Source: an uncultured Pseudomonadales bacterium | GTDB taxonomy: Bacteria; Patescibacteriota; Microgenomatia; UBA1400; PJMF01 | Direction of reading: 5' to 3' | Length of the DNA: 64,000 nt | NCBI GenBank assembly: GCA_964583625.1 | Contig: CAZOVA010000001.1 | Coordinates: forward strand, 76,465 to 140,464 | Part shown: in pieces, positions 205-64,000 of the stretch | Layout: each line of letters begins with the position of its first letter | How positions within the stretch are numbered: the first letter of the stretch is position 1 | The notes under the pieces: model-generated | Told to the model about the DNA's origin: nothing | The model's database searches: none | Seen by the model: the letters and a program-made list of their open reading frames with translations, nothing else | Made by a program: the position numbers and the translations under genes

Positions 205-3204
205 TTGCAAAGCCAAGTAAGCCCCCTTTTTGCCTTTTTGTTTTTTTTATGTCATAATAAAAAATTCATGACTCAATTTTTAATTACCCAGTTCAGCGAA
301 TCTTGGCCTAAAATTTTAGTCTTAGGACAGGAAGGAGTCTTTTCTCAAAAACTCCAAACTCTTTTGCAAGAAAAAGGTTTTCGAACTGAATTTGCTAATG
401 CTGGCCAATTTTCTACAGACGAGAGTCTACAAGAAGAAATTAGTAAAAAAAACTACTATAAAATTATCTGGCTTTTTGGTTGGCAGCCAGAAGCTGAGCC
501 CTTTAAAAAAGTTGTTCACTGGTTGAATGAGAGGCTTGAACCCACCTTAGTTATTGCTAGACTTGACACTATTCCAGATATTGATGATAAAGCTTTTTCC
601 TTAGAACGGCGACAATGGGACAAGCAAATCCGAGCAATCAATTATTTTGCTCAAAATCTTTCCAAAGCCTCTCTTTTAATTGGCCAAGACATTATTTCTT
701 CCGATTTCAACCACTTAGGCTTAAGCTTTCTTCTCCGCGGACACAAGGAAGGAAAAATATTTTCTCCAGAAATTGACTTTCGCTTTATTAATCTAGAAAG
801 GTTTTTACATCAAGTTTCTAATATCATTTTTGCGCCATACACCAATAAAAAAATGGTTTTTCAGTCAGATAAAATTCCTTATCGGCGTCTTGAAAAACAT
901 CTTCTTTCGTTAAGTCAGGCCCCCCTAGAAGTTATTTCTCGTCCCTCTTCTCCAGCAAAAGCAGAGCTAATTTTTCAACCTGAAATTTTGTTTGGATCAG
1001 GGAGTTTAGATTTTTTTAATGAAGATTTTTTTTATCGTCTACAGGAGAAGTTTTTAATAACACCCCCGTCATTTATTTCCCCTCCTGCTAAAATAAAAAC
1101 AAAAAAAGTTTTTTCCATTAAAGAAGAGAAAATAATTCTTCCTCTAAAACAGAACAAGTCTTTATTAAAGCCTCTACCTTCAGTTGCCTTCTTGACCGTA
1201 ATTGTTCCCAACTGCAATTTTTTAACTGATGGAGTTTTGGTTTGTCGCCCTGAAGTTAAGAGTAAAATTATCGTTCCTCCCCTACCAATTATTGGTTCAA
1301 AAGCTGACACCCATTTTTCCCCAGAGTATCAAAAATATTTAAATGGCTTAGTTCGTCAAGCTCCAACAAGAAAGCCCCAAAGAAAGCTTTCTCCAGTAGT
1401 TTCTCCACAAAAGCTTTTTAATCAAGCAAAAGAACGACCCCTAATTAAGAAAGAACAAAAGGTTGTTTATAAACAACAAAAAGCTCAACCAGTTCTGGTG
1501 AAAAAAAAGACTGCTTCTAAAATTGGTTGGCAGAAAATTGCCACCCCCTTTGTTCTGGCGCTTATTTGTTTATTTATCTATTTTGGTTTTTTACTCCCAA
1601 AACAAAGTGCTTATTCTCAGCAACCTATTCTTCAGAGTTTTTTTCAAGCCTGCCTGACTCCAGACTGTCTCAATGAACAGAATCAAGATTTGTGGCAAAA
1701 CTTAAAAACTCAAGCCCAGTCGACTAATCAGGAGGTGATGTTTATTAATCATTTCGAAAACTTTTTTACACAAAGAAATATTTTAAATCAACAAATGTCG
1801 CGTTTTTACCGAGTAATGATGAATTCCGAACCGGGGACGGCAACAGCAGAGGTGCAGCTAGTTCAAAATAGTCTTTTCACCACTCTTGAGAGTTTAGACC
1901 AGCTGCAAACAACCCTCACTCAAATTAAGGGTAGCTCAGTTAACAGCAGTCTTTTGCCAGATTTAGAAAGACTGTCGCAGCAACTAACCAAGATTAAGAA
2001 CAATTTCTTGCTTTGGCAAAAATATCAGGAAGTTTTCACTCTTTTAGCACAACAAGAAAAAACCAAGCTTTTAGTTTTATTATTAAATAACCAAACACTT
2101 TTAAGCCAAGGAGGAGAGCTTCTTGCTTTAAGTGAGATCGATGTTCAAGCAGGGACCTTTCAAAAAAGCCAACAAATACCGCTTTCTCGTCTTGCCCAAA
2201 ACCAAGCTGTCAAGGTTGAAGATAGTCGCTTTTTTTCTGCTTCTACTAGTAGTCTTCTCAGCCTACAACGACTTCCTTTGCAAGAAAATTTTTCTGCTTT
2301 AGCCAGTAAGACTCAAAAAATTCTCCAAGTTTCTCAAGATCTTCAGCTGGATCTAATTTTTAGCTTTAATTTAAATAGCTATGTGTCTCTTTTAGCTGTT
2401 TTAGAACAAAAAGAACCCGATCTTCTCTATCAGGAATTAAGCTTAGAGTTGAAAGAAAAAACTAGTCTTGAGCAAGAAAAAATTCTTTTAGACAAATATC
2501 AAGAGTTGGCTAAAAAGATGAAAGAAATCTCTCCTCAAAAAACCGCCAATTTAATTTTTACTTTCTTAGAAGAAATTGAGTCTCAAGAAATTCTTTTTTA
2601 TAGTGATCAGCCGGCTCTAAAACAACTTTTTGATAACCTTTCCCTTTCAGGGCAAGTTAATGCTCGTGCTTGTCCCTCTTTGCTGGGCGGAAGCGCTTGT
2701 TTTATCGATCATTTTGTTCAATTTCGCTCTAGTCTCAACGGTCAAGAGTCAAGCTTGCAAAACATTAATCACTCTATTGAGCTTGACAGTAAACAGACCA
2801 AACATGAAAGACAGATAGTCTTAGAAAACCCCTCTCAAGAGGAGAAAATAGAGTTTTGGCAGTTTGTCTTTCCTTCACTAGCTCAAGACATTATTGTGAC
2901 CATTGACGGGCAGAAAAGAACGGTTGATGAGCAAAACGGCTTTAAACTCACCTTGCCAGCTCAAAGCAAACAAATAATTAAGATTAGCTTTTATATTAAT
3001 AGGGTTTTGCCCGACGACAATTTTGTGTATAGTTTTTCTGAAAAAAAACAAAGCGGAGAAAGAAATCAAAGTTTCAATTTAAATATTAAAAATTCTCTCC
3101 CCTATTCTCCTAAAGTGATTGCTCCTTATGCCACTATTGATGGCAAGCAAATTAATTTTTCTTCAGTCAAGAACCAAAGCTTTTTGGGGGCCGTTGCTTT
3201 TTAG
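205..3204 (+). CDS. large hypothetical protein (999 aa) with a single internal TM segment; function unknown
   Basis: Long uninterrupted ORF with host-like codon usage and a hydrophobic segment (IATPFVLALICLFIYFGFLLP) mid-protein. The real start may be the internal Met at about 268. Confidence 0.6.
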   Translation: MQSQVSPLFAFLFFLCHNKKFMTQFLITQFSESWPKILVLGQEGVFSQKLQTLLQEKGFRTEFANAGQFSTDESLQEEISKKNYYKIIWLFGWQPEAEPFKKVVHWLNERLEPTLVIARLDTIPDIDDKAFSLERRQWDKQIRAINYFAQNLSKASLLIGQDIISSDFNHLGLSFLLRGHKEGKIFSPEIDFRFINLERFLHQVSNIIFAPYTNKKMVFQSDKIPYRRLEKHLLSLSQAPLEVISRPSSPAKAELIFQPEILFGSGSLDFFNEDFFYRLQEKFLITPPSFISPPAKIKTKKVFSIKEEKIILPLKQNKSLLKPLPSVAFLTVIVPNCNFLTDGVLVCRPEVKSKIIVPPLPIIGSKADTHFSPEYQKYLNGLVRQAPTRKPQRKLSPVVSPQKLFNQAKERPLIKKEQKVVYKQQKAQPVLVKKKTASKIGWQKIATPFVLALICLFIYFGFLLPKQSAYSQQPILQSFFQACLTPDCLNEQNQDLWQNLKTQAQSTNQEVMFINHFENFFTQRNILNQQMSRFYRVMMNSEPGTATAEVQLVQNSLFTTLESLDQLQTTLTQIKGSSVNSSLLPDLERLSQQLTKIKNNFLLWQKYQEVFTLLAQQEKTKLLVLLLNNQTLLSQGGELLALSEIDVQAGTFQKSQQIPLSRLAQNQAVKVEDSRFFSASTSSLLSLQRLPLQENFSALASKTQKILQVSQDLQLDLIFSFNLNSYVSLLAVLEQKEPDLLYQELSLELKEKTSLEQEKILLDKYQELAKKMKEISPQKTANLIFTFLEEIESQEILFYSDQPALKQLFDNLSLSGQVNARACPSLLGGSACFIDHFVQFRSSLNGQESSLQNINHSIELDSKQTKHERQIVLENPSQEEKIEFWQFVFPSLAQDIIVTIDGQKRTVDEQNGFKLTLPAQSKQIIKISFYINRVLPDDNFVYSFSEKKQSGERNQSFNLNIKNSLPYSPKVIAPYATIDGKQINFSSVKNQSFLGAVAF

Positions 3205-3237
3205 ACTAACCACAAAGATTCTTTAGTAGCTGGTCGT

Positions 3238-3248
3238 TATGGTATAAT
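3238..3248 (+). promoter_or_regulatory. extended -10 promoter element TATGGTATAAT upstream of the bL25 gene
   Basis: TGnTATAAT motif about 30 nt upstream of the ATG at 3279. The identical 11-mer recurs upstream of secY and the S10 operon. Confidence 0.4.
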
Positions 3249-3278
3249 AACCCTTCTTGAAAAAGAAAAGAAAGTTTT

Positions 3279-3941
3279 ATGACAGAAAAATATAAGCTCA
3301 AAGTCAAAAGAAGAGACACTCAAGTTAAGGGAAAAAAATATCAAAATGAAGGTTTTATCTTGGGAAACATTTTTGGTCTAGGAAAAAGTCAAGCGATTGC
3401 TCTTCCAGCTAAAGAAACAAGAAAACTTTTTCACGAGATTGGTGAATCCAGTGTTATTTATCTTACTTTAGATGAGGATAAAAAAGAAATTCCTGTCTTA
3501 TTAGATGAAACTCAGGCAGACCCCCTCAATGGTTCTTTAATTCATATTGCTTTAAAGAAAGTAGACCTGAAGGAAAAAGTCGAAGCCGCTGTTGCCTTTG
3601 AAGTCATTGGGGAATTTTCTGTTCCAGAAGCCCTTTATTTATTATTAAAACAAGAAGTAGAAGTGGAAGCTCTACCCACAGATTTGCCAGAATCTTTTAT
3701 TCTAGATGTAAGCAAATTTACCAAGATTGGTGAGCAGATAACTTTTGCCGATCTTGAATACGATCGAGAGAAAGTCACTCTTTTAGTTGAAGATCAAGAT
3801 GAGCCAGTCATTATTGTTTCTGAGGTCAAAGAAGAGATTGAGGAAGAGCCGGTAGTCGAAGAAGCTGCTCCAGCAGAAGGAGAAGCTGAGACGGTCGCCC
3901 AAGAAGAAACTGAGGAATCACCAACCGCAGAACAAAAATAA
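3279..3941 (+). CDS. rplY: 50S ribosomal protein bL25 / general stress protein Ctc form
   Basis: N-terminal L25 fold signature (KLKVKRRDTQVKGKK...ILGNIFG...ALP) plus Ctc-type C-terminal domain and acidic tail. Confidence 0.7.
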   Translation: MTEKYKLKVKRRDTQVKGKKYQNEGFILGNIFGLGKSQAIALPAKETRKLFHEIGESSVIYLTLDEDKKEIPVLLDETQADPLNGSLIHIALKKVDLKEKVEAAVAFEVIGEFSVPEALYLLLKQEVEVEALPTDLPESFILDVSKFTKIGEQITFADLEYDREKVTLLVEDQDEPVIIVSEVKEEIEEEPVVEEAAPAEGEAETVAQEETEESPTAEQK

Positions 3942-30248: not shown

Positions 30249-31850
30249 TTATTTTGCTACCGCCTGACTTCTAGTTTCTCTAATAACGGTCACGGTCACT
30301 GTACCTGGATAAGTCAATTTTTCTTTAATTTCATCACGAATTTTACCACTGAGAACGGCCACATCATCATCTTTGGACTTCTCTGGTTCAAGAATGATGC
30401 GCACTTCGCGGCCAGCAGCAATGGCATAAGATTTAGCGACCTCAGGATAAGCATTGGCAATTTCCTCCAGCTTTTGCAATCTCTGAACATATTCATCATA
30501 GTTTTCATATCTAGCTCCTGGTCTTGCTCCAGAAATAGCGTCAGCGATATAAACCGCTACTTGTTCTGGCCCAGAAAAATGGTCGTCTTCATGGTGTTGA
30601 GCGATAGCATCAATCACCCCTTGAGGGAGATTATATTTTTTAGCGATTTTAACGCCCAACTCTACATGACTGCCTTCTACCTCATCAGAGACTTTACCAA
30701 TATCATGAAGTAAACAACCCAATTTAACAATATTAACATTCAGTCCTAATTCATGAGCAATTTTAATACCGATTCTTGTTTCTTCCAAAGTGTGAGCAAT
30801 TAAATTTTGACCATAAGAAAAACGATATTTAAAACGACCTAAAAGCTGCATCAACTCATTAGGTAAATTGTAAATACCCAATTGATGACAAAGATTCTTA
30901 CCTTCCTCAAACATTACTTTATCAATTTCTTTTTTGGTTTTAGCCACAATTTCTTCAATTCTTGCTGGCTGCACACGACCATCCTTAATTAGTTTTTCCA
31001 AAGAAATTTTGGCAATCTCTCGACGAACTGGATCAAAACAAGAAAGTTTGACTTCAGTTGGTGAAGCATCTAAATCGACGTCAACGCCGGTAATTCTTTC
31101 AAAAGCGTGAATATTACGACCGTTTTTACCAATAATTTTGCCTTTGGCGTCTTCACTGGGAAGGGTAACTGTTGACATGGTATATTCTGGCACATAATCA
31201 GTGGCCCCATATTTCATTGCTTCAATCAAAATCTCCTTGACTTTGCTATCAGCTTCCGCTCGGGCCTCTTCTTCCTTTTGATGAATGATTTGCGCCATGT
31301 CTTTAACGGCCCGTTTTTTTGTTTGGTCGATTAAATACTCCTGAGCTTGAGTTTTAGTCATGCCAGCCAATTCTTCCAAACGAGCTAAGACCTTCTTTTT
31401 GGTTTCTTCCACTTGGGTTTGTAAGTCACGCAGTTTCTCTTTTTCTTTTTCTAAGTATTCTTCTTTCTGATCCATTTGGGACAAACGCGCATCAATGCGG
31501 TCTAGCTTCAAAGTGAGGGTCCTTTGTTGCTCCTCTACTTGACGCAAAACGGCCTGCGCTTCTTTTTCTGCCTGACTACGCAAACTCAAAGCTTCAGACT
31601 TAGCTTCGACAATAATTTCTTTGGCCTGAGCTTGTGCCTCTCTTTTGAGGCTTTGTACTTCCAGCAAAGTTTTAGCGTCTGGTTGACTAATTACTGGTTT
31701 TACAGTTTGGGGCAAATGCCCCCTTTTGTCTATTTGTCCAGCTGTCTTTTTTTTGACTGGTGGACTTATTTTTTTGACTCCTGCGGGAGCCTTTACATTA
31801 CTTTTGCCTTTGGAGGCAAAAAGAGTTGATAAATTATTAAAAAATGCCAT
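30249..31850 (-). CDS. rny: ribonuclease Y
   Basis: N-terminal TM plus coiled coil, KH domain (IIGKNGRNIHAFERITGVDVDLD), HD domain (HTLEETRIGIKIAHELG…LLHDIGK). Confidence 0.85.
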   Translation of the reverse strand: MAFFNNLSTLFASKGKSNVKAPAGVKKISPPVKKKTAGQIDKRGHLPQTVKPVISQPDAKTLLEVQSLKREAQAQAKEIIVEAKSEALSLRSQAEKEAQAVLRQVEEQQRTLTLKLDRIDARLSQMDQKEEYLEKEKEKLRDLQTQVEETKKKVLARLEELAGMTKTQAQEYLIDQTKKRAVKDMAQIIHQKEEEARAEADSKVKEILIEAMKYGATDYVPEYTMSTVTLPSEDAKGKIIGKNGRNIHAFERITGVDVDLDASPTEVKLSCFDPVRREIAKISLEKLIKDGRVQPARIEEIVAKTKKEIDKVMFEEGKNLCHQLGIYNLPNELMQLLGRFKYRFSYGQNLIAHTLEETRIGIKIAHELGLNVNIVKLGCLLHDIGKVSDEVEGSHVELGVKIAKKYNLPQGVIDAIAQHHEDDHFSGPEQVAVYIADAISGARPGARYENYDEYVQRLQKLEEIANAYPEVAKSYAIAAGREVRIILEPEKSKDDDVAVLSGKIRDEIKEKLTYPGTVTVTVIRETRSQAVAK

Positions 31851-32332: not shown

Positions 32333-32347
32333 AATCGCTTGTTGTTT

Positions 32348-33634
32348 ATGAATCAAGTTAAACAATTCTTCCAAAAAATCATCAATTCTCCAGAACTTAA
32401 ACGCAAAGCTTTATTTACGCTACTGATTTTTATTGTCGCTCGTTTTCTTGCTCAAGTCCCTTTACCCACGATTGACATTGCCCGTTTGCAGATGATTTTT
32501 AGCAATAGCGACTTTCTTAGTTTTCTTAATATTATTTCTGGGGGAACTTTATCCTCTTTTTCCATTGTCGCTATTGGAATCAGTCCTTATATTACCTCTT
32601 CCATTGTGTTTCAGTTGCTAGCGATGATTTGGCCCAAGTTCAAAGAAATGCAAAAAGATGGAGAGAAGGGTAGAGCCAAACTCAATCAATATACCAGATT
32701 GCTATCTTTACCTTTGGCTATTTTCCAATCTTTTTCCATTATTGCTATTTTAAGAAGTCAGAGTTTGCTTTTGAGTAATAACTGGCAAGCAATTATGGTT
32801 TTAATTTTGTTTTTAACGGTTGGTTCCTTTATTATGCTTTGGCTGGGAGAATTAATTACTGCCAAAGGTTTAGGAAATGGTATTTCTATGATTATGTTGC
32901 TGGGTATTTTAGGACAATTGCCGACAACTTTCGCTCAAGGAATTCAATTGTCAAAAACTGGCCAATGGTTTCTGCTTTTGGCAGTCAGTGCTGGTATTGT
33001 TGCTATTGTTGGCATTGTTGTTTTTGTTAATCAAGCGGTACGCAAAGTGCCGATTCATTATGCCAAAAGAATTCAAGGGAACCGACAAATTGGAGGACAA
33101 ACAACTTTTTTCCCGATCAAACTTAATTCTGTTGGCGTTATGCCTATTATTTTTTCTGTCACCTTAATGACTATCCCCGCCGTCATCGGTCGTGCTTTGA
33201 CTAGTTTGGAAAGTCCTTTTTGGCAGAATTTTGGTGAAAAATTACAAGTCCTTTTCTCTCAGAACAATTCTTTTTATATCGTCCTTTATTTTGGCATTGT
33301 TTTTGTTCTTTCATATTTTTCTGCTTTGCTTTTTTTCAATGCTCGAGATATCAGTGAGGAATTAAAAAAATCAGGTGCCTTTATTGCGGGAGTAAGACCT
33401 GGACAACAAACCCAGACTTTTTTTGAAAGAGTGATTAAACGTCTAACATTCGTTGACGGTCTTTTTCTTGGTTCAGTAGCTGTTCTGCCTTTTATTTTGC
33501 AAAAAATTACTGGTTTAAACTCTTTGGCGATTGGCGGGACAAGCCTTTTGATTGCTGTTTCTGTTATTTTAGAAGTTAATAAAATCGTGGATGGTGCCGC
33601 TGTCGGGCAGGATTACGATAAATATTTATCATAA
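32348..33634 (+). CDS. secY: preprotein translocase subunit SecY
   Basis: 10-TM SecY with characteristic N-terminus (…ELKRKALFTLLIFIVARFLAQVPLP…). ATG at 32348 preferred over the track's TTG at 32339. Confidence 0.9.
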   Translation: MNQVKQFFQKIINSPELKRKALFTLLIFIVARFLAQVPLPTIDIARLQMIFSNSDFLSFLNIISGGTLSSFSIVAIGISPYITSSIVFQLLAMIWPKFKEMQKDGEKGRAKLNQYTRLLSLPLAIFQSFSIIAILRSQSLLLSNNWQAIMVLILFLTVGSFIMLWLGELITAKGLGNGISMIMLLGILGQLPTTFAQGIQLSKTGQWFLLLAVSAGIVAIVGIVVFVNQAVRKVPIHYAKRIQGNRQIGGQTTFFPIKLNSVGVMPIIFSVTLMTIPAVIGRALTSLESPFWQNFGEKLQVLFSQNNSFYIVLYFGIVFVLSYFSALLFFNARDISEELKKSGAFIAGVRPGQQTQTFFERVIKRLTFVDGLFLGSVAVLPFILQKITGLNSLAIGGTSLLIAVSVILEVNKIVDGAAVGQDYDKYLS

Positions 33635-33652
33635 AAAAGGAAAGTAAAAAGC

Positions 33653-34207
33653 ATGAGAATTGTTTTAATTGGAATTCAAGGGGCTGGTAAGTCAACTCAG
33701 GGAAATTTATTGTCTGAAAAAATTAACGTACCCTATCTTTCTTCTGGTCATATTTTTCGACAAATGGCCAAAGCTAAGACTCCCACTGGCAGAATGCTCA
33801 AAGAAACCCTTAATTCTGGTTCTTTAGTTTCTGACGAAATGACGATCAATGTGGTTTTGGAATATCTAGCTAAACCAGAATATGCTAATGGCTATGTTTT
33901 GGACGGCTTTCCTCGGACTCAGGCCCAAGCGGAGGTTTTTAATGGGGGAGTGGATAGAGTGGTTTTTTTGGATGTTTCTGATCGCGAGGCGCTTTGGCGG
34001 ATTTCTGGACGTGTTTCTGATCGCGAAGACGAGACCTTGCAAGCGATTCGCAAAAGAATAGAACTTTTCCATGCTTGGACACAACCAGTTTTAGATTATT
34101 ATGCTGCTCAGAGAAAATTAATCACTATTGACGGAGAACAGACAGTGGAAGAAGTTTTCGCTGATATTTGCCGTCATCTAAACATCAATTTAGAAAATGA
34201 TAAATAA
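33653..34207 (+). CDS. adk: adenylate kinase (short form, no Zn-lid)
   Basis: MRIVLIGIQGAGKSTQG P-loop, GYVLDGFPRTQAQA. Confidence 0.9.
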   Translation: MRIVLIGIQGAGKSTQGNLLSEKINVPYLSSGHIFRQMAKAKTPTGRMLKETLNSGSLVSDEMTINVVLEYLAKPEYANGYVLDGFPRTQAQAEVFNGGVDRVVFLDVSDREALWRISGRVSDREDETLQAIRKRIELFHAWTQPVLDYYAAQRKLITIDGEQTVEEVFADICRHLNINLENDK

Positions 34208-34925
34208 ATTCAGCGCCATGCGTGAAGGTGGCGCCAAATTAAATAAGATAAAAAAACAATTAATCGATTTTGCTGTTATTGGTAGAAGTTTTTTAGAAAT
34301 TGAAAATCAAGCTCAAAAGTTAATTAGGGAAGAGGGAGCTGTTCCCAATTTTTCTTTGGTCCCTGGATATAAATGGGCTATTTGTATCAATAAAAATGAG
34401 GGCATTGTTCACGGTATTCCTAATGAAACCATCATCAATGACGGTGATTTAATTTCTATTGATCTAGGTTTACTTTGGCAAGGATGGAACCTTGACACCT
34501 CAATTAGTTTTATCGCTGGCAAAAGTAATAGCCAGCTTGACTATTTTTTACAAATCGGACAAAAAGCCCTCCGTAAAACTATTGCTCTCGCTCAAGCAGG
34601 CAATAGTGTTTACGATTTATCAATGATGATTGAAAAAACTATCCAAAGAGCTGGTTTTTCTCCTAGCTATCAATTAGCTGGTCATTTTATTGGTAAAAAA
34701 CTTCATGAAGATCCATTAATCCCTTGCGTCGGGCGCAAAGTAGATAGAAAAAAACTTCTAAAAGTGGGGGACTCCTTAGCCATCGAAGTAATGTATGCTG
34801 CTGGTGAATGTGATTTAGTTTTAGCTGCTGATGGTTGGACTTATGAAACCGCTGACAAAAGTCTAACAGCTCTATTTGAAGAAACTGTTTTTATCACAGC
34901 AAAGGGACCACAAATTTTAACTTAA
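34197..34925 (+). CDS. map: methionine aminopeptidase type I
   Basis: Pita-bread fold motifs (…IVHGIPNETIINDGDLISIDLG…, …HFIGKKLHEDP…EVMYAAGE). Confidence 0.85.
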   Translation: MINKFSAMREGGAKLNKIKKQLIDFAVIGRSFLEIENQAQKLIREEGAVPNFSLVPGYKWAICINKNEGIVHGIPNETIINDGDLISIDLGLLWQGWNLDTSISFIAGKSNSQLDYFLQIGQKALRKTIALAQAGNSVYDLSMMIEKTIQRAGFSPSYQLAGHFIGKKLHEDPLIPCVGRKVDRKKLLKVGDSLAIEVMYAAGECDLVLAADGWTYETADKSLTALFEETVFITAKGPQILT

Positions 34926-40024: not shown

Positions 40025-41692
40025 TTAATTGTTTGGTAGACCAATGACTTCGGTGGGATTAAAAACCACCTTATTACTCTCCCGATCGAGGGTAAAAGTG
40101 CCAGCCACTTTGGTTTTAATTGAGCCGTCCTGATCATACTCAGCAAAGACAGCCGTCAAACCTTGATAGGGCTGCATATCCAAATGATGTTGACCCTCAG
40201 TCAGTTGGCGGAAAATATCACCCACCTCGGAGATTTGAGAAAGCTTTCCCTCTTGTCCAGTTATCTCAATCAATTGTCCAGCGGGGATGTTTCCCTTGCC
40301 ATTGGTAATTGTTTCTAAGTGGGCAGGGATTTTGGCAAAACTAAGAGTGTTCCACCATTTGGCGTCCTGTCTCTCTTCTGGCGTTATTAAATTACCATTA
40401 ATACTAATTGAGCCATCCCCGGAAATCTTCAAAACTTGTTCCTTGATAGAGGCGGGGATGGTGACGTCCACTCGATCAATCAACCGCAAATCATTTTCGC
40501 CTGCAACATTGGCATTGGAATAACGAAACTCTTGCTCGTCAACACTTGGATCCCAGAAAGAAGTAACGAATTTTTCAATAACTTGTCCTTGCGGGCTAGA
40601 AAATTCAATTTTACTTTGTAAATCCATCTCTGAACGACGAGGATCAATATAGTTGTTTTCGGCAGTTCCTCCAATTGGTAAAGCATCAATAAAGGTCTGC
40701 CGGGCAAGTGATTCTTCGCCGGCCATTACTTCTTGTGCCATTGAAGAGGCTTCTTGCTCTGTTGTGGGGAGCTTGTCGACACCAATAACTTCGGTGGGAT
40801 TGAAAACAATTTTTCCTTGTTCATTGGCCATAAATGTCCCTTTTACTTGCTGGGCAATCTCACCATTCTCTGCAAAAACAGTAAAAGCAGCATTAATTCC
40901 TGTATAAGGTCTTTTTTCTCCGTCTTCCAGCAAATGTTCTTGTCCTTCTTGCAGTTGAAAAGAGATATCTCTTCTTTCGGCCTCTAGTGAAGGTCTCTCA
41001 CCATTAATAAATAGTTGACCAGAAGGGCGATTACCATGACCATCGGTCATCACTTCTACTCCAGCAGGGAACACGCCGATATTAAGATTGTTCCAATAGC
41101 CACTATCTTGTTGTTGATCGGAACGGACCAAACCCTCTTGTGTGCCCAAAGAACCATCACCAGATATTTTTAAGGTTTGTTCCTGACTAGAAGCAGGAAT
41201 AAAATTAATAATTTTATCTACCAAATACTGACCCTCAGATTCTCTATTGGAAGAGAGGAAGGGGACACTTTCTGCCTGAGCATCAAATAAGGAAAGAATA
41301 AACTGTTTGACTTCTGGACCTTGTTCACCTACCACCTCAATATTATTGATAAAGTCGGCTTTGGCTTTCTCAGGATCAAGAAATTGTTTCTCCTGTGGTC
41401 CATCAGCCACTAATTCATTGAGAAAAGCTTGTCTTTGCTCTGTTTCTCCGGCGAGACCTTCTTCCAGCCAAGCTAAGTTTTCTTGCGAAGGCATAGTGCC
41501 AGCCGTTTCCAATTTTGTTTTTGTATCTGTTTTGCTATTAGGGTCGCTAGCTGCCTCAGCTTTTTGTCCACCGCCACCACTAAAAGCTAGACCAATAGCT
41601 GTTACAATGGCGGCCGCTCCCCTGGCAAGTTTCTTTTTCTCTTTTTTCTTAAACTCTTCTTCCGTCCCCGGATATCCTTGTTCTAAGGCCAT
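40025..41692 (-). CDS. secreted/anchored hypothetical protein built from two homologous roughly 235-aa repeats
   Basis: N-terminal basic + hydrophobic + AEA signal. Internal duplication visible (…KISGDGSLGTQEGLV…KIVFNPTEVIGVDKLP… versus …KISGDGSISINGNLI…KVVFNPTEVIGLPNN). Confidence 0.6.
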   Translation of the reverse strand: MALEQGYPGTEEEFKKKEKKKLARGAAAIVTAIGLAFSGGGGQKAEAASDPNSKTDTKTKLETAGTMPSQENLAWLEEGLAGETEQRQAFLNELVADGPQEKQFLDPEKAKADFINNIEVVGEQGPEVKQFILSLFDAQAESVPFLSSNRESEGQYLVDKIINFIPASSQEQTLKISGDGSLGTQEGLVRSDQQQDSGYWNNLNIGVFPAGVEVMTDGHGNRPSGQLFINGERPSLEAERRDISFQLQEGQEHLLEDGEKRPYTGINAAFTVFAENGEIAQQVKGTFMANEQGKIVFNPTEVIGVDKLPTTEQEASSMAQEVMAGEESLARQTFIDALPIGGTAENNYIDPRRSEMDLQSKIEFSSPQGQVIEKFVTSFWDPSVDEQEFRYSNANVAGENDLRLIDRVDVTIPASIKEQVLKISGDGSISINGNLITPEERQDAKWWNTLSFAKIPAHLETITNGKGNIPAGQLIEITGQEGKLSQISEVGDIFRQLTEGQHHLDMQPYQGLTAVFAEYDQDGSIKTKVAGTFTLDRESNKVVFNPTEVIGLPNN

Positions 41693-41817
41693 AAGAACTC
41701 CTTTATTTGCTAGTCGATAATAATTTCATTATATCATAAGATACTTTTAGAGAGAAAATTTGCTTTTATTTAATTAAATAATTTAGTTAAATAGTTTGAT
41801 GTTTTCTTAAAAAGAAA

Positions 41818-41863
41818 GACCCCCGTTTTAAGGCGGGGGTCAGTCGAGAGCAACGCGCTCTCA
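41818..41863 (-). terminator. two tandem stem-loops (GACCCCCG-N8-CGGGGGTC and GAGAGC-N5-GCTCTC) immediately 3' of the GC-rich gene; the first is followed on the minus strand by a T-rich tract
   Basis: Read directly; positions approximate to about 1 nt. Confidence 0.5.
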
Positions 41864-41870
41864 GAAGTAC

Positions 41871-42590
41871 TTACCTGATCGGGTTGAGGGCGACGGTGTC
41901 GCCCATCTTAACGATCACAAAGTCATAGGTGCCGTCGTTGGCCAGGATGCGCACATCCAGGCCGTCGTACGGCTTGTTCTTCAGGTGCTCCACGGGAAGG
42001 AGAACCTGGATCCCAAGATCCCGGTATTCAGCCCAAGCATAGGGCTTAACACCGGCATCGAAGAGCTGGATGCTAGGCACCCAGCCCTTGCTGAAAACGA
42101 GCATCAGCTCGCCGTCAGCCGGGATGGTCATGAAGAACAAGGTATTCCTGCTGGGGTCTCCACCTTGGAGAGTCTCACCCAGCTTCTGTCCGTTCAAGAA
42201 CACCTCAACGAACGAACCGCTGATCTTGAGGACCTGTCCCGCTTTCACGGGGGTCCTCGCCACCTTGAGACCGTTTTCCTCAACGACGGTCAAGCCGTCG
42301 TTGAGCCACACAAAGTGTGGATTTTGATTCTCAATCTGGAAATATTGCCCCCAAGTAATGCGTTCAGCATCACTCAGGTTGACAATCCAGCCAGGCCCAT
42401 CATAGGTCTGAGTAGCTTGCTGCTGGAGATCCAAGGTCGCCAACAACTGCGCCACTTGCTCAGGGGTGCCGTAGAATACGGCCCCGCTGGGTAAGGTGAC
42501 AGGCACGAGTCCCGCGCCTTCCGCGAGGACGGTATTGGCGCCCAGCGCCAGGAGGATCAGGACAACAACGAGGATCATCAGTTTTTTCAT
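41871..42590 (-). CDS. secreted hypothetical protein encoded on a high-GC (about 57%) insert. Signal peptide MKKLMILVVVLILLALGANTVLA. An alternative in-frame upstream start at 42680 also carries an SD
   Basis: Codon usage (CTG, GCC, GGC, GTC) and GC content are sharply different from flanking genes. AAGGAGGG lies 7 nt before the ATG at 42590, and AAGGAGGT 7 nt before the ATG at 42680. Confidence 0.7.
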   Translation of the reverse strand: MKKLMILVVVLILLALGANTVLAEGAGLVPVTLPSGAVFYGTPEQVAQLLATLDLQQQATQTYDGPGWIVNLSDAERITWGQYFQIENQNPHFVWLNDGLTVVEENGLKVARTPVKAGQVLKISGSFVEVFLNGQKLGETLQGGDPSRNTLFFMTIPADGELMLVFSKGWVPSIQLFDAGVKPYAWAEYRDLGIQVLLPVEHLKNKPYDGLDVRILANDGTYDFVIVKMGDTVALNPIR

Positions 42591-42730
42591 GGGGTTTCCC
42601 TCCTTCTTAGCGCCTTGAGCGCTCTTTGTGGGGTTGATCCCCACCGTGGGTTCCTTGGTGTGCACGAACAGCTTCTTCATGATTTTTACCTCCTTCGGTG
42701 GGGATCATGGACCCCGTTTAGTCAGACCTT

Positions 42731-42795
42731 GCTATCGCGAATAGCTAAGATCTGCCACTCAAAACTCAAGTCTTAAGTTCTCAGTGGCAGATCCT
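42731..42795 (-). promoter_or_regulatory. pair of palindromes upstream of the GC-rich gene: GCTATCGCGAATAGC-like and an 11-bp inverted repeat GATCTGCCACT-N23-AGTGGCAGATC
   Basis: Read directly; coordinates approximate. Located about 50-110 nt upstream of the longer start codon. Confidence 0.3.
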
Positions 42796-43063
42796 ATACT
42801 AGGTTCAAGCAAGAAATAACTACACCAAAGTGGTTTCACTATTTTGACTTTGTTATAAGTATCTTCTGTTAAAAAGCGTGTTTAAGAAATATTGCTATTT
42901 CTTTTCACTCCCGCTTCAACTCTAAGAGTTTTTCGCCTTACCAAGCGAAATGCTTGAGAGGCAAGACCTTTCTTATGTTAAAGCGAACACATTATAGCAT
43001 AAGATATCTATTTTGTCAATAGTCAATTATTATAAGTCTAATTATTGAAGAAATAAGAAAATA

Positions 43064-43549
43064 TTAGCCCACTTTTACTTTGGCCACCTGGAGCACTTGT
43101 CCATGGAGCAGGTATCCTGGAGTAATCACTTCGGTCACAACTTCATTTTCACCTGTTTTTTCTACCGCCTCCATTTTTTCTGGATCAAACTTTCCGCCCT
43201 CAAGCTCCATTTTTTGCAGACCTTGATCCTTGAGAGTTTGCCAAAATTGTTCCACTACCAAATTGAGTCCTTGGTCTTGCAAGTTTTCCGCTGCTAAACT
43301 CAGATGAGTTAAAGGCTGTAAAAGGCTAGAGAAGACCAAAACTTGTGCAGCCTTGATCAGCTGAGTTTGATCTTCTTTTTGTCGGCGAACAAGATTTTGA
43401 TAATCGGCCAAAGCTCGAGCTGTTTGCTCTTTACATGCTGCTATTTGCTTTTTGAGTTGAGAGTTCTCTTCAGCGAGATTATTTTTTTTATCAAATTTTC
43501 CTTGGAAATCATTTTTTTTAACAGAAACTCCTTTTTTATCTTGTAACAT
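43064..43549 (-). CDS. grpE: nucleotide exchange factor GrpE (short)
   Basis: Coiled-coil N-terminus (…ALADYQNLVRRQKED…) and C-terminal beta-domain (…FDPEKMEAVEK…ITPGYLLHGQVLQVAKVKV). Confidence 0.7.
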   Translation of the reverse strand: MLQDKKGVSVKKNDFQGKFDKKNNLAEENSQLKKQIAACKEQTARALADYQNLVRRQKEDQTQLIKAAQVLVFSSLLQPLTHLSLAAENLQDQGLNLVVEQFWQTLKDQGLQKMELEGGKFDPEKMEAVEKTGENEVVTEVITPGYLLHGQVLQVAKVKVG

Positions 43550-43560
43550 AAGCTATTTTT

Positions 43561-44280
43561 CTAAATCATACTTTCCATCAATTGCTTGATATAGCGCATC
43601 ATCGGGATAACATAAGGATAGTCAAAACGACTAGAACCTAAAACGCCAAACTGATATTCGTCTTCACCAAGCATCACTTTGGAAAAAATCAAGCTGATAG
43701 GCTCTAGGTCGCGATTGCCTAATTCTTGACCATAGACGACTTGGACAGAATTTTCACTATTACCGAATTTGAAGATATCCTGCAAAACAGAGACCTCTTC
43801 AATTAAAGTCAAAACTTGACGCATCAGCGTAATATCATAAAATTCTGGCATTTGTAGTAAATTGGCATAGCCAGCGTGATAAACTTTGCACCCATTAATG
43901 ACGACGAAGCCCAAGGCGTGAGTTTGTTTGGCTAAACCTCTAGCGATTGCCCAAGCTAATTCTTCATGTTCATTGCGATTGAGCCAAATTTTTTCTTTTA
44001 CACCCACCTCATCGGCTACTGTCAAATCTTTTTCCTTCATCAGTTCATTGACATAGAGCTTGAGAGCTGAGCTGGTAGGCAAGCGACCAGAGCTAGAATG
44101 GTCTTTGGACAAATAACCTTGTTTTTCTAAAAAAACCATTTCATTACGAATAGTTGCTGGAGAAACTCCGAGATTGTATTTTTTATCCAAAGTTTCTGAA
44201 CCCACCGGCTTGGCCTCACGAATAAACTCCTCAACGATTAATTTGAGAATTTGTACTTGACGGGCTGTTAATCCGATCAT
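43561..44280 (-). CDS. hrcA: heat-inducible transcription repressor HrcA
   Basis: LTARQVQILKLIVEEFIREAKPVGSETL…SPATIRNEMVFLEKQGYLSKDHSSSGRLPT matches the HrcA N-terminal wHTH region. Confidence 0.75.
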   Translation of the reverse strand: MIGLTARQVQILKLIVEEFIREAKPVGSETLDKKYNLGVSPATIRNEMVFLEKQGYLSKDHSSSGRLPTSSALKLYVNELMKEKDLTVADEVGVKEKIWLNRNEHEELAWAIARGLAKQTHALGFVVINGCKVYHAGYANLLQMPEFYDITLMRQVLTLIEEVSVLQDIFKFGNSENSVQVVYGQELGNRDLEPISLIFSKVMLGEDEYQFGVLGSSRFDYPYVIPMMRYIKQLMESMI

Positions 44281-44384
44281 AATTATCTTTCTCTCACAAT
44301 TTCAAGTAGCAATTATATAGCAAGACTGCCAGTTTGTCAATTTTAAGCCTGATTTTGATTTTTTCATTTAGTTTTTGCTCATCA

Positions 44385-44414
44385 CTTGACAAAAGAGTTT
44401 TATTAATGATAGAA
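44385..44414 (+). promoter_or_regulatory. sigma70-like promoter TTGACA-18-TAGAAT driving the pilin-like gene array
   Basis: cacTTGACAaaagagttttattaatgaTAGAATg about 60 nt upstream of the ATG at 44474. Confidence 0.5.
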
Positions 44415-44473
44415 TGCAAGACATAACTTGCAAAAGTTACATTAGTTATTAATTGAAAGAAAGGTTTCTTTAT

Positions 44474-44893
44474 ATGAAGAAAGTCTTGAATAAGATCAGC
44501 ACAGCTGCTTCTTTGGGAGTGATTGCTTTGAGCAATGCTGGTATGGCTTTTGCTCAAGGGGGAAGAGCTGGAGTTAACATGGGCACTAATACCATTTTTC
44601 AAACTGGCGGTACAGCTGTAACTTCTGACCCCACGGTTTTGATTAAAAATGTAGTTAATCTGATTTTAATTTTGGCAGGCGCCTTAGTGTTTGCCTATTT
44701 AATCTGGGGAGCGATTAAATGGATTACTTCTGGTGGTGATAAATCCAAAGTGGAAGAAGCTAGAAATAAAATTACTTCAGCTATCGTCGGTCTTTTGATT
44801 TTAGCCGCTGTTTGGGCCATCTTCAACTTGGTCCTCACCATTGCTTTCGGAGCTGGAGACATGACGATCAAGTCATTAAACACTGCCACCTAA
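44474..44893 (+). CDS. pilin-like small membrane protein 1 (signal peptide plus two-TM hairpin); TrbC/VirB2-like T4SS pilin architecture
   Basis: MKKVLNKISTAASLGVIALSNAGMAFA-QG signal. Hairpin VLIKNVVNLILILAGALVFAYLIWGAI-KWITSGGDKSKVEEARNK-ITSAIVGLLILAAVWAIFNLVLTIAFG. No G/FTLIE type IV prepilin motif. Confidence 0.55.
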   Translation: MKKVLNKISTAASLGVIALSNAGMAFAQGGRAGVNMGTNTIFQTGGTAVTSDPTVLIKNVVNLILILAGALVFAYLIWGAIKWITSGGDKSKVEEARNKITSAIVGLLILAAVWAIFNLVLTIAFGAGDMTIKSLNTAT

Positions 44894-44926
44894 TTTGCTA
44901 ATTTTTAAAATATAAAAATTCTCAAA

Positions 44927-44951
44927 CCCCTCTTAAAAAAGAGGGGTTTTT
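44927..44951 (+). terminator. rho-independent terminator CCCCTCTT-aaaa-AAGAGGGG + TTTTTG
   Basis: 8-bp stem plus U-tract directly after pilin-like gene 1. A second promoter (TTGACA-17-TACACT, about 44954-44982) follows. Confidence 0.6.
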
Positions 44952-45004
44952 GTTTGACAAAGAGCCTCTTGTTTGATACACTCATCCTCATGAACTTTAA
45001 ATTT

Positions 45005-45448
45005 ATGAAAAAATTTCACTTAAAATCACCAATGGTCTTATTTTTGTCGGTCATTTTGTTTTTTGGACAAATACAGGCGGCGAGTCCAAATCCGAGTCCA
45101 AATCCGAGTCCAAATCCTAATACTGCTTATGCAATTGACTCTTTTAAACCTCAAAATATGAATGTAGCAACTGATGCCTCTAGTTTGATTGTTAATATTG
45201 TCAATACAGTAATTATGGTGGCTGTTATTTTAGCTTTTGTTTATTTACTCTACGGAGGTTTGTCGATGATCACCTCTGAAGGTGATGCGGCCAAAAAAGC
45301 CACCGCCAGACAAAGAATGACTTGGGCAGCGATTGGATTATTGATTTTTGCTGGTTCTTGGGCAATATTCAATTTAATCACCACCGTCGCTTTTGGCGGC
45401 ACAGACGTAGAATTGCCAGTATTTACTGACGAACAAGCTAATACTTAG
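45005..45448 (+). CDS. pilin-like small membrane protein 2 (paralog), with (SPNP)3 linker
   Basis: Start at MKKFHLKSPMVLFLSVILFFGQIQA-AS. Same TM1-loop(SEGDAAK)-TM2 core. The track's upstream extension was rejected because the promoter lies inside it. Confidence 0.55.
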   Translation: MKKFHLKSPMVLFLSVILFFGQIQAASPNPSPNPSPNPNTAYAIDSFKPQNMNVATDASSLIVNIVNTVIMVAVILAFVYLLYGGLSMITSEGDAAKKATARQRMTWAAIGLLIFAGSWAIFNLITTVAFGGTDVELPVFTDEQANT

Positions 45449-45469
45449 TGTAATAAAGAAAGATACTAT

Positions 45470-46430
45470 TAAAATTATGAAAAAAGGTTTCTTAAAAATT
45501 GGTAAAAGTCTTTTACTAAGTTTTTCTCTTTTAGCTTTGGCTTTTGTTCCAGTAGCGGCTCAAACCGACGAGAAAATCAAGGTGAGCACCTTTACTCAAT
45601 CAGCTGGTGATAAAGTGCCTACTAGTTCTACTGTTTTAATCACCAATATCGTCAATACTGTCTTAATTGTGGCTGCCGCTTTAGTTTTTGCCTATTTAAT
45701 CTATGGAGCTATTAGCTGGATTACTTCAGGTGGTGATAAATCCAAAGTAGAAACAGCCAGAAATAGAATTACCTCTGCCGCTTTAGGAATTCTCATTCTT
45801 GCTTCTGTTTGGGCCATCTACAATCTAGTTTTAACAATTGCTTTTGGCGGTCAAGATTTGCAAATTAAGAATTTGAATGAAGGAGTGGCAAACAGAATAA
45901 ATCAAGGAACCAGAAAAGACGAAACGGATAAAAGAGAAAAAGAAAGAGCTATATAAACTAGCCGTAACGAGGTAAAACTTTGAAAGTAAAAAAGGTAAAG
46001 AAAGGTATTAAAATAAAATTATGAAAAAAGGTTTCTTAAAAATTGGTAAAAGTCTTTTACTAAGTTTTTCTCTTTTAGCTTTGGCTTTTGTTCCAGTAGC
46101 GGCTCAAACCGACGAGAAAATCAAGGTGAGCACCTTTACTCAATCAGCTGGTGATAAAGTGCCTACTAGTTCTACTGTTTTAATCACCAATATCGTCAAT
46201 ACTGTCTTAATTGTGGCTGCCGCTTTAGTTTTTGCCTATTTAATCTATGGAGCTATTAGCTGGATTACTTCAGGTGGTGATAAATCCAAAGTAGAAACAG
46301 CCAGAAATAGAATTACCTCTGCCGCTTTAGGAATTCTCATTCTTGCTTCTGTTTGGGCCATCTACAATCTAGTTTTAACAATTGCTTTTGGCGGTCAAGA
46401 TTTGCAAATTAAGAATTTGAATGAAGGAGT
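45470..46430 (+). repeat. 417-bp perfect tandem duplication (45470-45886 = 46014-46430, period 544 bp) spanning 7 nt of 5' UTR plus the first 137 codons of pilin-like genes 3 and 4
   Basis: Sequences identical by eye over the whole interval. They diverge exactly at the C-terminal tail. Confidence 0.8.
45477..45956 (+). CDS. pilin-like small membrane protein 3 (paralog), charged C-terminal tail
   Basis: MKKGFLKIGKSLLLSFSLLALAFVPVAA-QT signal. Conserved hairpin core. Tail …NRINQGTRKDETDKREKERAI. Confidence 0.55.
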   Translation: MKKGFLKIGKSLLLSFSLLALAFVPVAAQTDEKIKVSTFTQSAGDKVPTSSTVLITNIVNTVLIVAAALVFAYLIYGAISWITSGGDKSKVETARNRITSAALGILILASVWAIYNLVLTIAFGGQDLQIKNLNEGVANRINQGTRKDETDKREKERAI

Positions 46431-46533
46431 AGCGGAAAATGCTGCTCCCCTTGGCGGCGGCGTTGGAGGTGGCGCCCTTGGCGGCGGCGTTGGAGGTGGC
46501 GCAGGTTCTGTTGTCATGACTGCTGCTGAATAG
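46021..46533 (+). CDS. pilin-like small membrane protein 4 (paralog), Gly-rich C-terminal tail (GGGVGGGALGGGVGGGAGS) encoded by a 27-bp x2 tandem repeat
   Basis: Identical to gene 3 through residue about 137, then …ENAAPLGGGVGGGALGGGVGGGAGSVVMTAAE. Confidence 0.55.
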   Translation: MKKGFLKIGKSLLLSFSLLALAFVPVAAQTDEKIKVSTFTQSAGDKVPTSSTVLITNIVNTVLIVAAALVFAYLIYGAISWITSGGDKSKVETARNRITSAALGILILASVWAIYNLVLTIAFGGQDLQIKNLNEGVAENAAPLGGGVGGGALGGGVGGGAGSVVMTAAE

Positions 46534-62787: not shown

Positions 62788-63162
62788 ATGATTCAACTTC
62801 GTTCTGTTTTACAAGTCGCCGATAATTCTGGAGCTAAAAACTTGCGTGTTATCTGTGTCCATGGTGGCTCCAAACGTCGTTTTGGTTATCTAGCAAATAA
62901 AATTACTGCTTCAGTGATCAAAGCCGACCCCAATGGCACCGTTAAAAAAGGAGAAAAGGTCAAGGCAGTTGTCGTCCGCACCCGCAAAGAATATCAACGT
63001 CCAGGCGGAGAGCTGGTTCGTTTTAGCGACAATGCCGCCGTGATTATTACTTCTTTGGAAAATTTAGATCCAGTTGGCACTAGAGTTTTTGGCCCAGTGG
63101 CTCGTGAGGTGAAAAACGCTGGTTTTACAAAAATTGCCAATTTAGCAGCGGAGGTACTCTAA
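62788..63162 (+). CDS. rplN: 50S ribosomal protein uL14
   Basis: [27 protein letters not shown]…. Confidence 0.95.
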
Positions 63163-63163
63163 T

Positions 63164-63478
63164 ATGAAATTTAAAATTAATGATCAAGTAATTGTGACCG
63201 CAGGCAAAGACAAAGGTAAAAAAGCTAAAATTACCAAAGTTTTGCCAAAGGTTGATAAAGTGATCGTCGCTGGCGCTAATCTTTACACCAAGCATTTACG
63301 TAAAATGCCAGGAAAAGCTGGAGAAATAGTCAAAAAAGAAAGACCCTTGTCAGTTGCTAAGATCGCGATCTTAAATGAAAAGGGTCAACCAGACAGAATC
63401 GGTTATTTGCTCAAAGATGGTAAAAAAGTGCGAATTTTTAGAAAAACCAAAACTATTATTGATGAGAAAAAAAGATAA
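63164..63478 (+). CDS. rplX: 50S ribosomal protein uL24
   Basis: KFKINDQVIVTAGKDKGKKAKITKV… KOW motif. Confidence 0.9.
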   Translation: MKFKINDQVIVTAGKDKGKKAKITKVLPKVDKVIVAGANLYTKHLRKMPGKAGEIVKKERPLSVAKIAILNEKGQPDRIGYLLKDGKKVRIFRKTKTIIDEKKR

Positions 63479-63484
63479 GCTTAT

Positions 63485-64000
63485 ATGAATAGACTTAAAG
63501 AAAGATATCAAAAAGAAATTGTTGCTACTTTACAAAAAGAGCTCAATTATAAAAGCAGCTTTCAAGTGCCTCGATTGAAAAAGATCGTGGTCAATATGGG
63601 TGTGACCGATCCCGCTGATCCTCGAGCTCGCAGTCAGATTATGCCCAATCTCAAAGCTCAAATTGCTTTAATTTCTGGCCAAGAACCACAAATCACCAAA
63701 GCCAAGAAAGCAATTTCCAACTTTAAGTTGCGTCAAGGAGATCCGATGGGAGTCATGGTGACTTTGCGCGGAGAAAGAATGTGGGAGTTTTTGGATAAAC
63801 TAATTGCTATTGTCTTGCCGAGAGTCAAAGATTTTCGTGGAGTCAGTCGCACCGCTTTTGATGGTCAGGGAAACTATAGTTTGGGGATTGAAGAACAAAT
63901 TATTTTTCCTGAAATAGCTTATGATCAAATTGATCGAGTACGAAGCTTGCAGGTAAATTTTATTACCAATAGTAGCGACCAAGAAGCTTACCGTCTATTG
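63485..64000 (+). CDS. rplE: 50S ribosomal protein uL5 (3' end beyond the window)
   Basis: MNRLKERYQKEIVATLQKELNYKSSFQVPRLKKIVVNMGV… continues in frame to the window edge. Confidence 0.85.
   Translation, partial: MNRLKERYQKEIVATLQKELNYKSSFQVPRLKKIVVNMGVTDPADPRARSQIMPNLKAQIALISGQEPQITKAKKAISNFKLRQGDPMGVMVTLRGERMWEFLDKLIAIVLPRVKDFRGVSRTAFDGQGNYSLGIEEQIIFPEIAYDQIDRVRSLQVNFITNSSDQEAYRLL

Follow-up and report, generated by a model that had tools for sequence, protein, structure and literature searches.

An hrcA-grpE operon uncoupled from dnaK and, downstream of it, a separate GC-rich gene with a predicted structured leader in a Microgenomates bacterium

The heat-shock operon hrcA-grpE-dnaK(-dnaJ), as found in Bacillus subtilis, is governed by an inverted repeat that controls the expression of chaperones (CIRCE) and is the rule in Microgenomates. 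Long structured 5′ leaders are known from the mRNAs of highly expressed envelope proteins (Escherichia coli ompA, Bacillus aprE, S-layer genes), where they act as 5′ stabilisers. In Caulobacter crescentus hrcA-grpE and dnaKJ are separate operons (Roberts et al. 1996, J Bacteriol 178:1829, and another paper on the dnaKJ operon, both as given in the reference list of the review PMC8119881), and the CIRCE site that this review treats is the one at groESL. Here we describe a locus on contig CAZOVA010000001.1, within a 64-kb stretch of DNA that was analysed as a whole and is called the window below. In this locus hrcA and grpE are followed by a non-coding spacer and by a gene with an unusually high GC content at third codon positions (GC3) instead of by dnaK. 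We consider it likely that the locus comprises a self-repressed hrcA-grpE operon from which dnaK was uncoupled in the ancestor of a small clade and, downstream, a separate unit of leader and GC-rich gene (Table 1).

The hrcA and grpE genes are co-directional on the minus strand and separated by a gap of 11 nt. One promoter is located 5′ of the pair, and the next gene has a promoter of its own. A reading of the locus made from its letters alone, referred to here as the sequence-only reading, had described hrcA and grpE as intact and adjacent, which is confirmed by the Pfam matches and by the short gap. The window HrcA matches Thermotoga maritima HrcA (1STZ, 338 amino acids) with an E-value of 7e-16, but aligns to it over residues 15-131 and 234-300 only. 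About 100 central residues of the T. maritima protein, which we take to be an inserted dimerising domain, are missing from the window protein. There are 3567 HrcA homologues on record; the best 120, which were listed, have this short length in common, with 212-262 and nearly always about 240 amino acids. The window can be assigned to Microgenomates, a group of the candidate phyla radiation (CPR, Patescibacteria), by these homologues, among which are HrcAs of Woese-, Pace-, Levy- and Gottesmanbacteria. Within the clade of close relatives introduced below, the ratio of nonsynonymous to synonymous substitution rates (dN/dS) of hrcA is 0.03-0.08, indicating strong purifying selection. All seven lineages of the clade have an intact grpE, with a dN/dS of 0.15-0.28 among the six that were compared, at saturated dS. 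The divergence of GrpE relative to HrcA agrees with that of outgroup pairs in which dnaK is kept (GrpE identity with a median of 0.59, for HrcA identities of 0.74-0.88). Since the hrcA-grpE arrangement is present on 22 contigs from several sequencing runs, it is not an assembly artefact. The two genes are an intact two-gene operon in a Microgenomates (CPR) bacterium, and as such an ordinary heat-shock unit.

Searches with tblastn and Pfam analysis of large open reading frames (ORFs) revealed no HSP70, DnaJ or GroEL encoded in the window, which bears out the earlier observation that dnaK is absent from its usual place. The 9 kb past the right end of the window, where ribosomal genes are located, encode none of these three either. 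For comparison 80 hrcA loci were taken from species representatives across Microgenomates. Five of them are uninformative because the contigs end at hrcA or grpE; the other 75 reach far enough downstream. In all 75 informative outgroup loci grpE is followed by dnaK in the same orientation, and in most of them dnaJ comes next. The window belongs to a clade whose HrcAs are 76-86% identical to that of the window, all others among the matches listed being at most 67% identical, and dnaK follows grpE in none of the seven lineages of this clade. What does follow grpE varies. The leader and the GC-rich gene come directly after it in the window and in L101. In the lineage represented by L106-L108, joined to L008 through a 435-nt overlap of 100% identity, a gene for 108 amino acids and one for about 490 amino acids are found before the leader and the GC-rich gene. 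A family 2 glycosyltransferase (GT2) gene is present in convergent orientation in L003-L007 and in co-directional orientation in L100, while the neighbour is TGT in L098 and rpsO in L099. The seven lineages thus show six different immediate neighbours of grpE, and four of them (L003-L007, L098, L099 and L100; HrcA 77-84% identical) have four different neighbours and no GC-rich gene after grpE.

With dnaK kept in every informative outgroup locus and absent from every lineage of the clade, the dnaK-less operon is a derived, clade-wide state. The uncoupling of dnaK from the operon is an event in the common ancestor of this small clade and was not caused by the GC-rich gene. The sequence-only reading had proposed that a GC-rich insert displaced or replaced dnaK, a proposal that does not agree with the four lineages that are dnaK-less without the insert: these relatives (L003-L007 and L098-L100) have the same layout of hrcA and grpE alone, which is the very finding that the sequence-only reading had named as a refutation of its proposal. 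Its alternative suggestion that the spacer is a remnant of dnaK found no support either, as there is no similarity to DnaK at E ≤ 1 anywhere in the window, spacer included.

The promoter of the hrcA-grpE operon matches the sigma-70 consensus at 12 of 12 positions, and both hexamers are kept in six clade lineages. No match to the canonical CIRCE sequence TTAGCACTC-N9-GAGTGCTAA was found in the window with up to 3 mismatches. A weight matrix was built from the hrcA-upstream sites of 72 outgroup Microgenomates species only, the consensus of which is TTAGCA(G/C)TC-N9-TA(G/C/T)TGCTAA with an N9 that usually contains the −10 box. By this matrix a site inside the hrcA promoter scores 21.7 bits, compared to 3.8 bits for the next best site of the window and 11.8 bits for the best of 30 shuffled windows. 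The left arm of this CIRCE-like operator is positioned between the −35 and −10 boxes and the right arm starts within the final 3 nt of the −10 box. The arms are kept in the clade relatives and the N9 spacer varies, with L099 retaining TTAGCAGTT-N9-AATTGCTAA. In an alignment of the six clade lineages TTGACA, yTrGCAG and TATAATTGCTA form the sole conserved block, the rest of the upstream DNA being unalignable. The window has a CIRCE operator in a drifted, lineage-specific form, to which HrcA probably binds. HrcA seated on it would block RNA polymerase, and stress would release HrcA and allow the levels of HrcA and GrpE to rise. The earlier statement that no CIRCE element is present holds for the canonical consensus within the mismatch limit used here; for the diverged operator it was a false negative, due to that divergence.

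The stop codon of grpE and the first ATG of the next gene (42680) are separated by 383 nt of non-coding DNA. The minimum free energy calculated for the spacer RNA is −144.9 kcal/mol, compared to −99 ± 6 kcal/mol for shuffled sequences (z = −7.6), in agreement with the hairpin-rich non-coding stretch that had been noticed at the 3′ side of grpE. A predicted promoter begins 45 nt past the grpE stop. It matches the consensus at 12 of 12 positions and has a TG motif in addition; the same extended −10 design is found in L008 and L101. A terminator scan detected no terminator-like site between the grpE stop and this promoter, so that read-through may place the GC-rich gene partly under heat-shock control. 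The leader that would start downstream of the promoter contains several hairpins, an almost invariant single-stranded block and a GC-rich helix that reaches into the coding region (Table 1). This helix closes a loop in which the first AUG and its ribosome-binding site, GGAGG (42693-42689), are located, and folds at about −38 kcal/mol in all three lineages that possess the leader. Its 3′ arm is provided by codons 11-17, the coding sequence of a conserved peptide, T(V/L)VGI(N/D)P.

In L008-L012 and L101/L102 the orthologous gene has the same promoter and leader in front of it, at 66-69% nucleotide identity. The consensus structure of the leader has 97 pairs, and 94.8% of the alignment cells are paired, against 38-47% if the partners are slid by 1-3 columns. 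Compensatory changes are present in 27 pairs, against 2-6 after sliding, and none of 500 shuffles reached the observed pairing or compensatory values. A search of Rfam 15, which the sequence-only reading had suggested as a check, gave no family for the spacer at gathering or E-value thresholds; the best matches were microRNA models far below threshold, and the only Rfam match above threshold in the window is a tRNA. The separation of leader and grpE by two other genes in L106/L108+L008 indicates that the leader belongs to the downstream gene. Judged by these comparisons, the spacer is a promoter together with a conserved structured cis 5′ leader of the next gene, which is always the same gene, and the leader is a newly recognised RNA, predicted from covariation and without a match in Rfam. 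The idea of a regulatory RNA in the spacer thereby gains support from predicted structure and covariation in three lineages. The leader would act post-transcriptionally, as a cis-acting 5′ untranslated region. Stabilisation of the mRNA is the probable task of the hairpin at its 5′ end, while the GC-rich helix that encloses the first ribosome-binding site probably determines translation initiation and its rate. A role in sensing a ligand or a protein is conceivable but less likely.

The gene downstream of the leader has a GC content of 0.56 and a GC3 of 0.73, compared to a median GC3 of 0.31 for the window and to values of at most 0.38 for all other window ORFs of at least 200 codons, so its earlier description as GC-rich was correct. 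Its product consists of a conserved 30-residue N-terminal extension, a hydrophobic anchor or signal segment and a C-terminal beta-sandwich. The latter is modelled confidently by AlphaFold2 (predicted local distance difference test score 75-94 for residues 130-269), and a fold search of the PDB with the model gave no significant match (best E 0.003, template modelling score below 0.25). Among 1.84 billion cluster representatives the only close homologues are P0122 and P0243, in addition to two remote matches. Both are syntenic orthologues, with GC3 values of 0.63 and 0.70. High GC3 (0.63-0.73) is seen at window positions 41871-42680, at L008 1289-2281 and at L101 1266-2120, the other genes of these loci having values of about 0.3-0.5. 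The shared neighbourhood consists of the leader, the GC-rich gene, an optional paralogue of 555 amino acids, a PMT-family glycosyltransferase and a membrane protein of about 1109 amino acids. The proteins of neighbouring genes are 57-67% identical and the synonymous sites are saturated. The GC-rich protein is 40-46% identical and has the highest dN in the cluster, about twice that of its neighbours. Synteny in three lineages with saturated synonymous sites shows that the gene is not a recent foreign insertion, contrary to the view of it as a foreign insert. On these alignments, the high GC3 is evidently a maintained property of a vertically inherited, fast-evolving gene. Judging by its hydrophobic segment near the N-terminus, the product may be a surface protein that is anchored or secreted, a reading that fits the strong promoter, the strong ribosome-binding site, the strong terminator and the glycosyltransferase neighbours.

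A further start codon, in frame and with a ribosome-binding site of its own, is present at 42590. The two regions with a ribosome-binding site and ATG (42579-42606 and 42669-42696) are a 28-nt direct repeat, 90 nt apart. Use of the upstream start adds the conserved 30-residue extension, and the codons of this extension form one arm of an RNA helix. The two indels in the N-terminal extension are multiples of three, and the extension is therefore probably translated.

Further searches for the GC-rich family gave no relatives. A scan of JGI metagenomes based on the protein alignment, for which poor automatic peptide patterns were used, produced no matches, and a scan with a leader DNA pattern gave five chance matches on contigs of 57-60% GC in which only a 20-nt pattern matched. 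No matches to a back-translated motif of the gene were obtained in viral contigs. Flanking direct repeats that would mark an insertion were not found around the gene, the repeats seen being similarities between promoters and between ribosome-binding sites. Two candidate causes of the high GC content were rejected. An overlapping antisense gene is not indicated, as the long antisense ORFs differ from one lineage to another (207, 111 and 285 codons) and of the kind expected for GC3-rich genes. A GC-rich donor lineage is not indicated either: the sole remote homologue with context, P0245 (L103 475-1113), is found in an organism of about 49% GC from a biogas fermenter, where it adjoins clpB and is richer in AT than the genes around it. 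Its GC3 of 0.41, with 0.58-0.66 for the neighbours, mirrors the window anomaly in reverse. Within the reach of the searches, the leader RNA and the GC3 island are confined to three lineages of a single CPR clade. The downstream unit is composed of an extended −10 promoter, a leader of about 305 nt, a fast-evolving beta-sandwich gene with a GC3 near 0.7 and a strong terminator.

Several points weigh against a self-repressed operon with uncoupled dnaK and a separate leader unit downstream. The operator arms are complementary at only 5 of 9 positions, 6 of 18 positions differ from canonical CIRCE, and the −10-like spacer contributes part of the matrix score. The leader alignment contains three independent sequences only, and the transcription start, the read-through from grpE and all functions of the leader are predictions. 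Finally, dnaK has not been located, being absent from the window and from about 9 kb beyond its right end, with none appearing in the DnaK search discussed below. The mismatches and the poor internal complementarity of the operator would also be expected if the site were a decayed relic or reflected mere promoter conservation, with hrcA-grpE now expressed constitutively, and an N9 spacer that coincides with the −10 box inflates the score. We consider such a relic unlikely in view of the conservation in six lineages of yTrGCAG, in the spacer between −35 and −10, and of TGCTA just past the −10 box, neither of which sigma-70 needs, and of the strong purifying selection on HrcA. The spacer, for its part, might be a ligand- or temperature-sensing riboswitch, a thermometer or a separate small RNA, rather than a leader that stabilises the mRNA and tunes translation. 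Its several conserved helices, the almost invariant single-stranded AAGGUCUGACUAA and the enclosure of the ribosome-binding site by a conserved helix would suit such a function. Yet no Rfam family matches, the terminator scan found no terminator or attenuator inside the leader, the helix at the ribosome-binding site is too stable for a thermometer, and two helices pair the leader with the coding region, which argues against a stand-alone RNA. A sensor or a separate RNA thus seems improbable, and we favour a cis-acting leader that stabilises the mRNA or tunes its translation.

The fate of dnaK can also be explained in other ways. Insertion of a foreign GC-rich cassette 3′ of grpE could have displaced or replaced it. 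The cassette abuts grpE in the window and in L101, exactly at the position of dnaK in the outgroups, and its gene is a strong compositional outlier. In the third lineage it is located two genes further downstream, so that its association with hrcA-grpE is old, and an ancestral insertion followed by rearrangements is a possible course of events. Four clade lineages, however, lack dnaK after grpE and are cassette-free there, and the window holds no dnaK remnant. The neighbouring genes that were scanned include no integrase or transposase, insertion repeats do not flank the cassette and viral matches were not obtained. The cassette is moreover inherited in synteny with saturated synonymous sites, and hence is not a recent arrival. 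Displacement by the cassette is accordingly quite improbable, and uncoupling of dnaK in the clade ancestor, independent of the GC-rich gene, remains our preferred explanation. Complete loss of DnaK from the clade, with GrpE and HrcA persisting for another role or decaying, is a more drastic option. It would account for the absence of dnaK and dnaJ from the window and from the adjoining 9 kb. It would also fit the outcome of a protein search that started from the DnaK of L013, the nearest dnaK-bearing relative (63% HrcA identity). Among the 120 matches listed in that search, none was on a clade contig or carried a clade contig fingerprint, and many shared contigs with outgroup HrcAs; a clade DnaK may fall below the cut-off. 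Nearly all listed matches were at least 80% identical to the query (one had 67% local identity), so that for a clade whose relative is at 63% HrcA identity the search is not a fair test. Furthermore, GrpE is intact in seven lineages, its dN/dS of 0.15-0.28 reflects purifying selection, and its rate of evolution relative to that of HrcA is not above the rate in outgroups with a retained dnaK. To our knowledge DnaK is nearly universal in bacteria. We therefore regard loss of DnaK as very improbable; given the selection on GrpE, dnaK has very probably been relocated elsewhere in the genome.

Some features of the surroundings deserve mention. The 555-residue protein encoded next to the GC-rich gene contains two repeats with distant homology to the GC-rich protein's C-terminal domain (blastp E-values of 2e-6 and 2e-4). 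Its gene has a GC3 of 0.35 and an orthologue in L101 with 57% identity. The protein is an internal duplication, and its promoter part at 41727-41735 resembles the promoter part at 42991-43006. On the other side, divergent from hrcA, positions 44453-46533 hold four tandem genes for type IV secretion system pilin-like proteins (PF18895). The last two (45477-45956 and 46021-46533) are identical over their first ~137 residues and have different C-termini; the identical starts point to recent tandem duplication. The spc ribosomal-protein operon ends at L15, followed by a gene for a 638-residue protein, with secY-adk-map about 30 kb away (window 32339-34925 and 62788-64000; L104 598-6690). This split indicates that conserved operons were broken more than once in this genome. 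In L100 phage-like genes (tail tube, integrase; 608-3591) are present in the 5.4 kb upstream of hrcA, showing that the flanks of hrcA-grpE are highly variable.

Table 1. Coordinates of the features described, in window positions.
Feature	Position	Strand	Remarks
hrcA-grpE promoter	44312..44340	−	TTGACA (44340-44335), 17-nt spacer, TATAAT (44317-44312)
Diverged CIRCE-like operator	44306..44332	−	CTGGCAGTC-TTGCTATAT-AATTGCTAC; 9-N9-9 design, inside hrcA promoter
hrcA	43561..44280	−	239 amino acids; short Microgenomates form of heat-shock repressor; Pfam HrcA PF01628, E 1.2e-14
grpE	43064..43549	−	161 amino acids; nucleotide-exchange factor for DnaK; Pfam GrpE PF01025, E 3.8e-25
Downstream-unit promoter (predicted)	42991..43019	−	TTGACA-17-TGcTATAAT, extended −10
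Structured 5′ leader (predicted)	42681..42986	−	about 305 nt; start predicted from promoter
Leader, composite hairpin	42986-42911	−	begins at predicted 5′ end
Leader, second hairpin	42910-42874	−	followed by variable A/U-rich linker
Leader, 24-bp hairpin	42796-42746	−	
Leader, small hairpin	42745-42731	−	
Leader, single-stranded block	42730-42718	−	AAGGUCUGACUAA; almost invariant
Leader, GC-rich helix	42706-42692 (5′ arm); 42649-42636 (3′ arm)	−	3′ arm inside coding region
GC3-rich gene	41871..42680	−	269 amino acids
Intrinsic terminator of GC-rich gene	41818..41841	−	GACCCCCG...CGGGGGTC then T-run; 8-bp stem, 7 G-C pairs
Gene for 555-residue neighbour	40025..41692	−	own extended −10 promoter TGaTATAAT (41735-41727)

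The heat-shock part of the locus is a known arrangement with a lineage-specific operator variant and is ordinary, so that this side of the result is mostly a correction. It shows that one clade broke an hrcA-grpE-dnaK operon that is otherwise invariant in Microgenomates. It also shows that the HrcA/CIRCE circuit of Microgenomates and CPR bacteria is recognisable and is built on a short HrcA and an operator whose consensus drifts; because of this drift, searches with consensus strings give false negatives. More useful are the leader and the GC anomaly, which offer a new, if modest, lead. In an AT-rich genome the composition of the cassette may be kept by selection for an mRNA that is resistant to ribonuclease or controlled in translation. 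The window encodes RNase Y (30249-31850), an enzyme of relevance to this idea, as a GC-rich mRNA body and a 5′ hairpin may protect against AU-preferring cleavage. Taken further, the leader could be a regulatory RNA of a new class, in control of a dedicated expression cassette for a CPR surface protein that diversifies rapidly; the GC-rich synonymous composition of this cassette would be actively maintained, and read-through from grpE would link it to the heat-shock response. This is a tentative proposal that we regard as possible but doubtful. If it is true, the compositional island was made by selection and not by horizontal transfer. If the composition is held by selection, the locus advises caution where compositional outliers of reduced genomes are taken for foreign DNA, and it is a tractable case of selection at the mRNA level in uncultivated bacteria.

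Compared to the canonical CIRCE operon, the locus has the same repressor family, the same order of hrcA and grpE and a 9-N9-9 operator that is likewise placed at the promoter. It differs in being without dnaK and dnaJ and in the diverged operator arms (CTGGCAGTC and AATTGCTAC). In contrast to T. maritima HrcA, its repressor is the short form of about 240 amino acids, with about 100 residues missing. The two-gene hrcA-grpE unit of Caulobacter crescentus is likewise without an attached dnaK, so that bacteria were already known to have such a layout. The layout of the window has an independent origin, in a CPR clade all of whose relatives have retained dnaK in the operon, and unlike in Caulobacter a CIRCE-like site is situated on the hrcA promoter itself.

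The downstream unit appears analogous to the leader-bearing mRNAs of envelope proteins, as here too the promoter is very strong, a hairpin begins at the predicted 5′ end, the ribosome-binding site and the terminator are strong and the protein is presumably exported. Its leader differs from theirs in having no sequence or Rfam relationship to them, in being much longer (about 305 nt) and in its conserved helix to codons 11-17; an effect on mRNA half-life is putative. With horizontally acquired genomic islets the GC-rich gene shares a strongly atypical composition (GC3 0.73 vs 0.31). It differs from them in that mobility genes and flanking repeats are absent and a low-GC paralogue is located next door, and in that the gene is syntenic in three lineages and has kept its composition through saturated synonymous sites.

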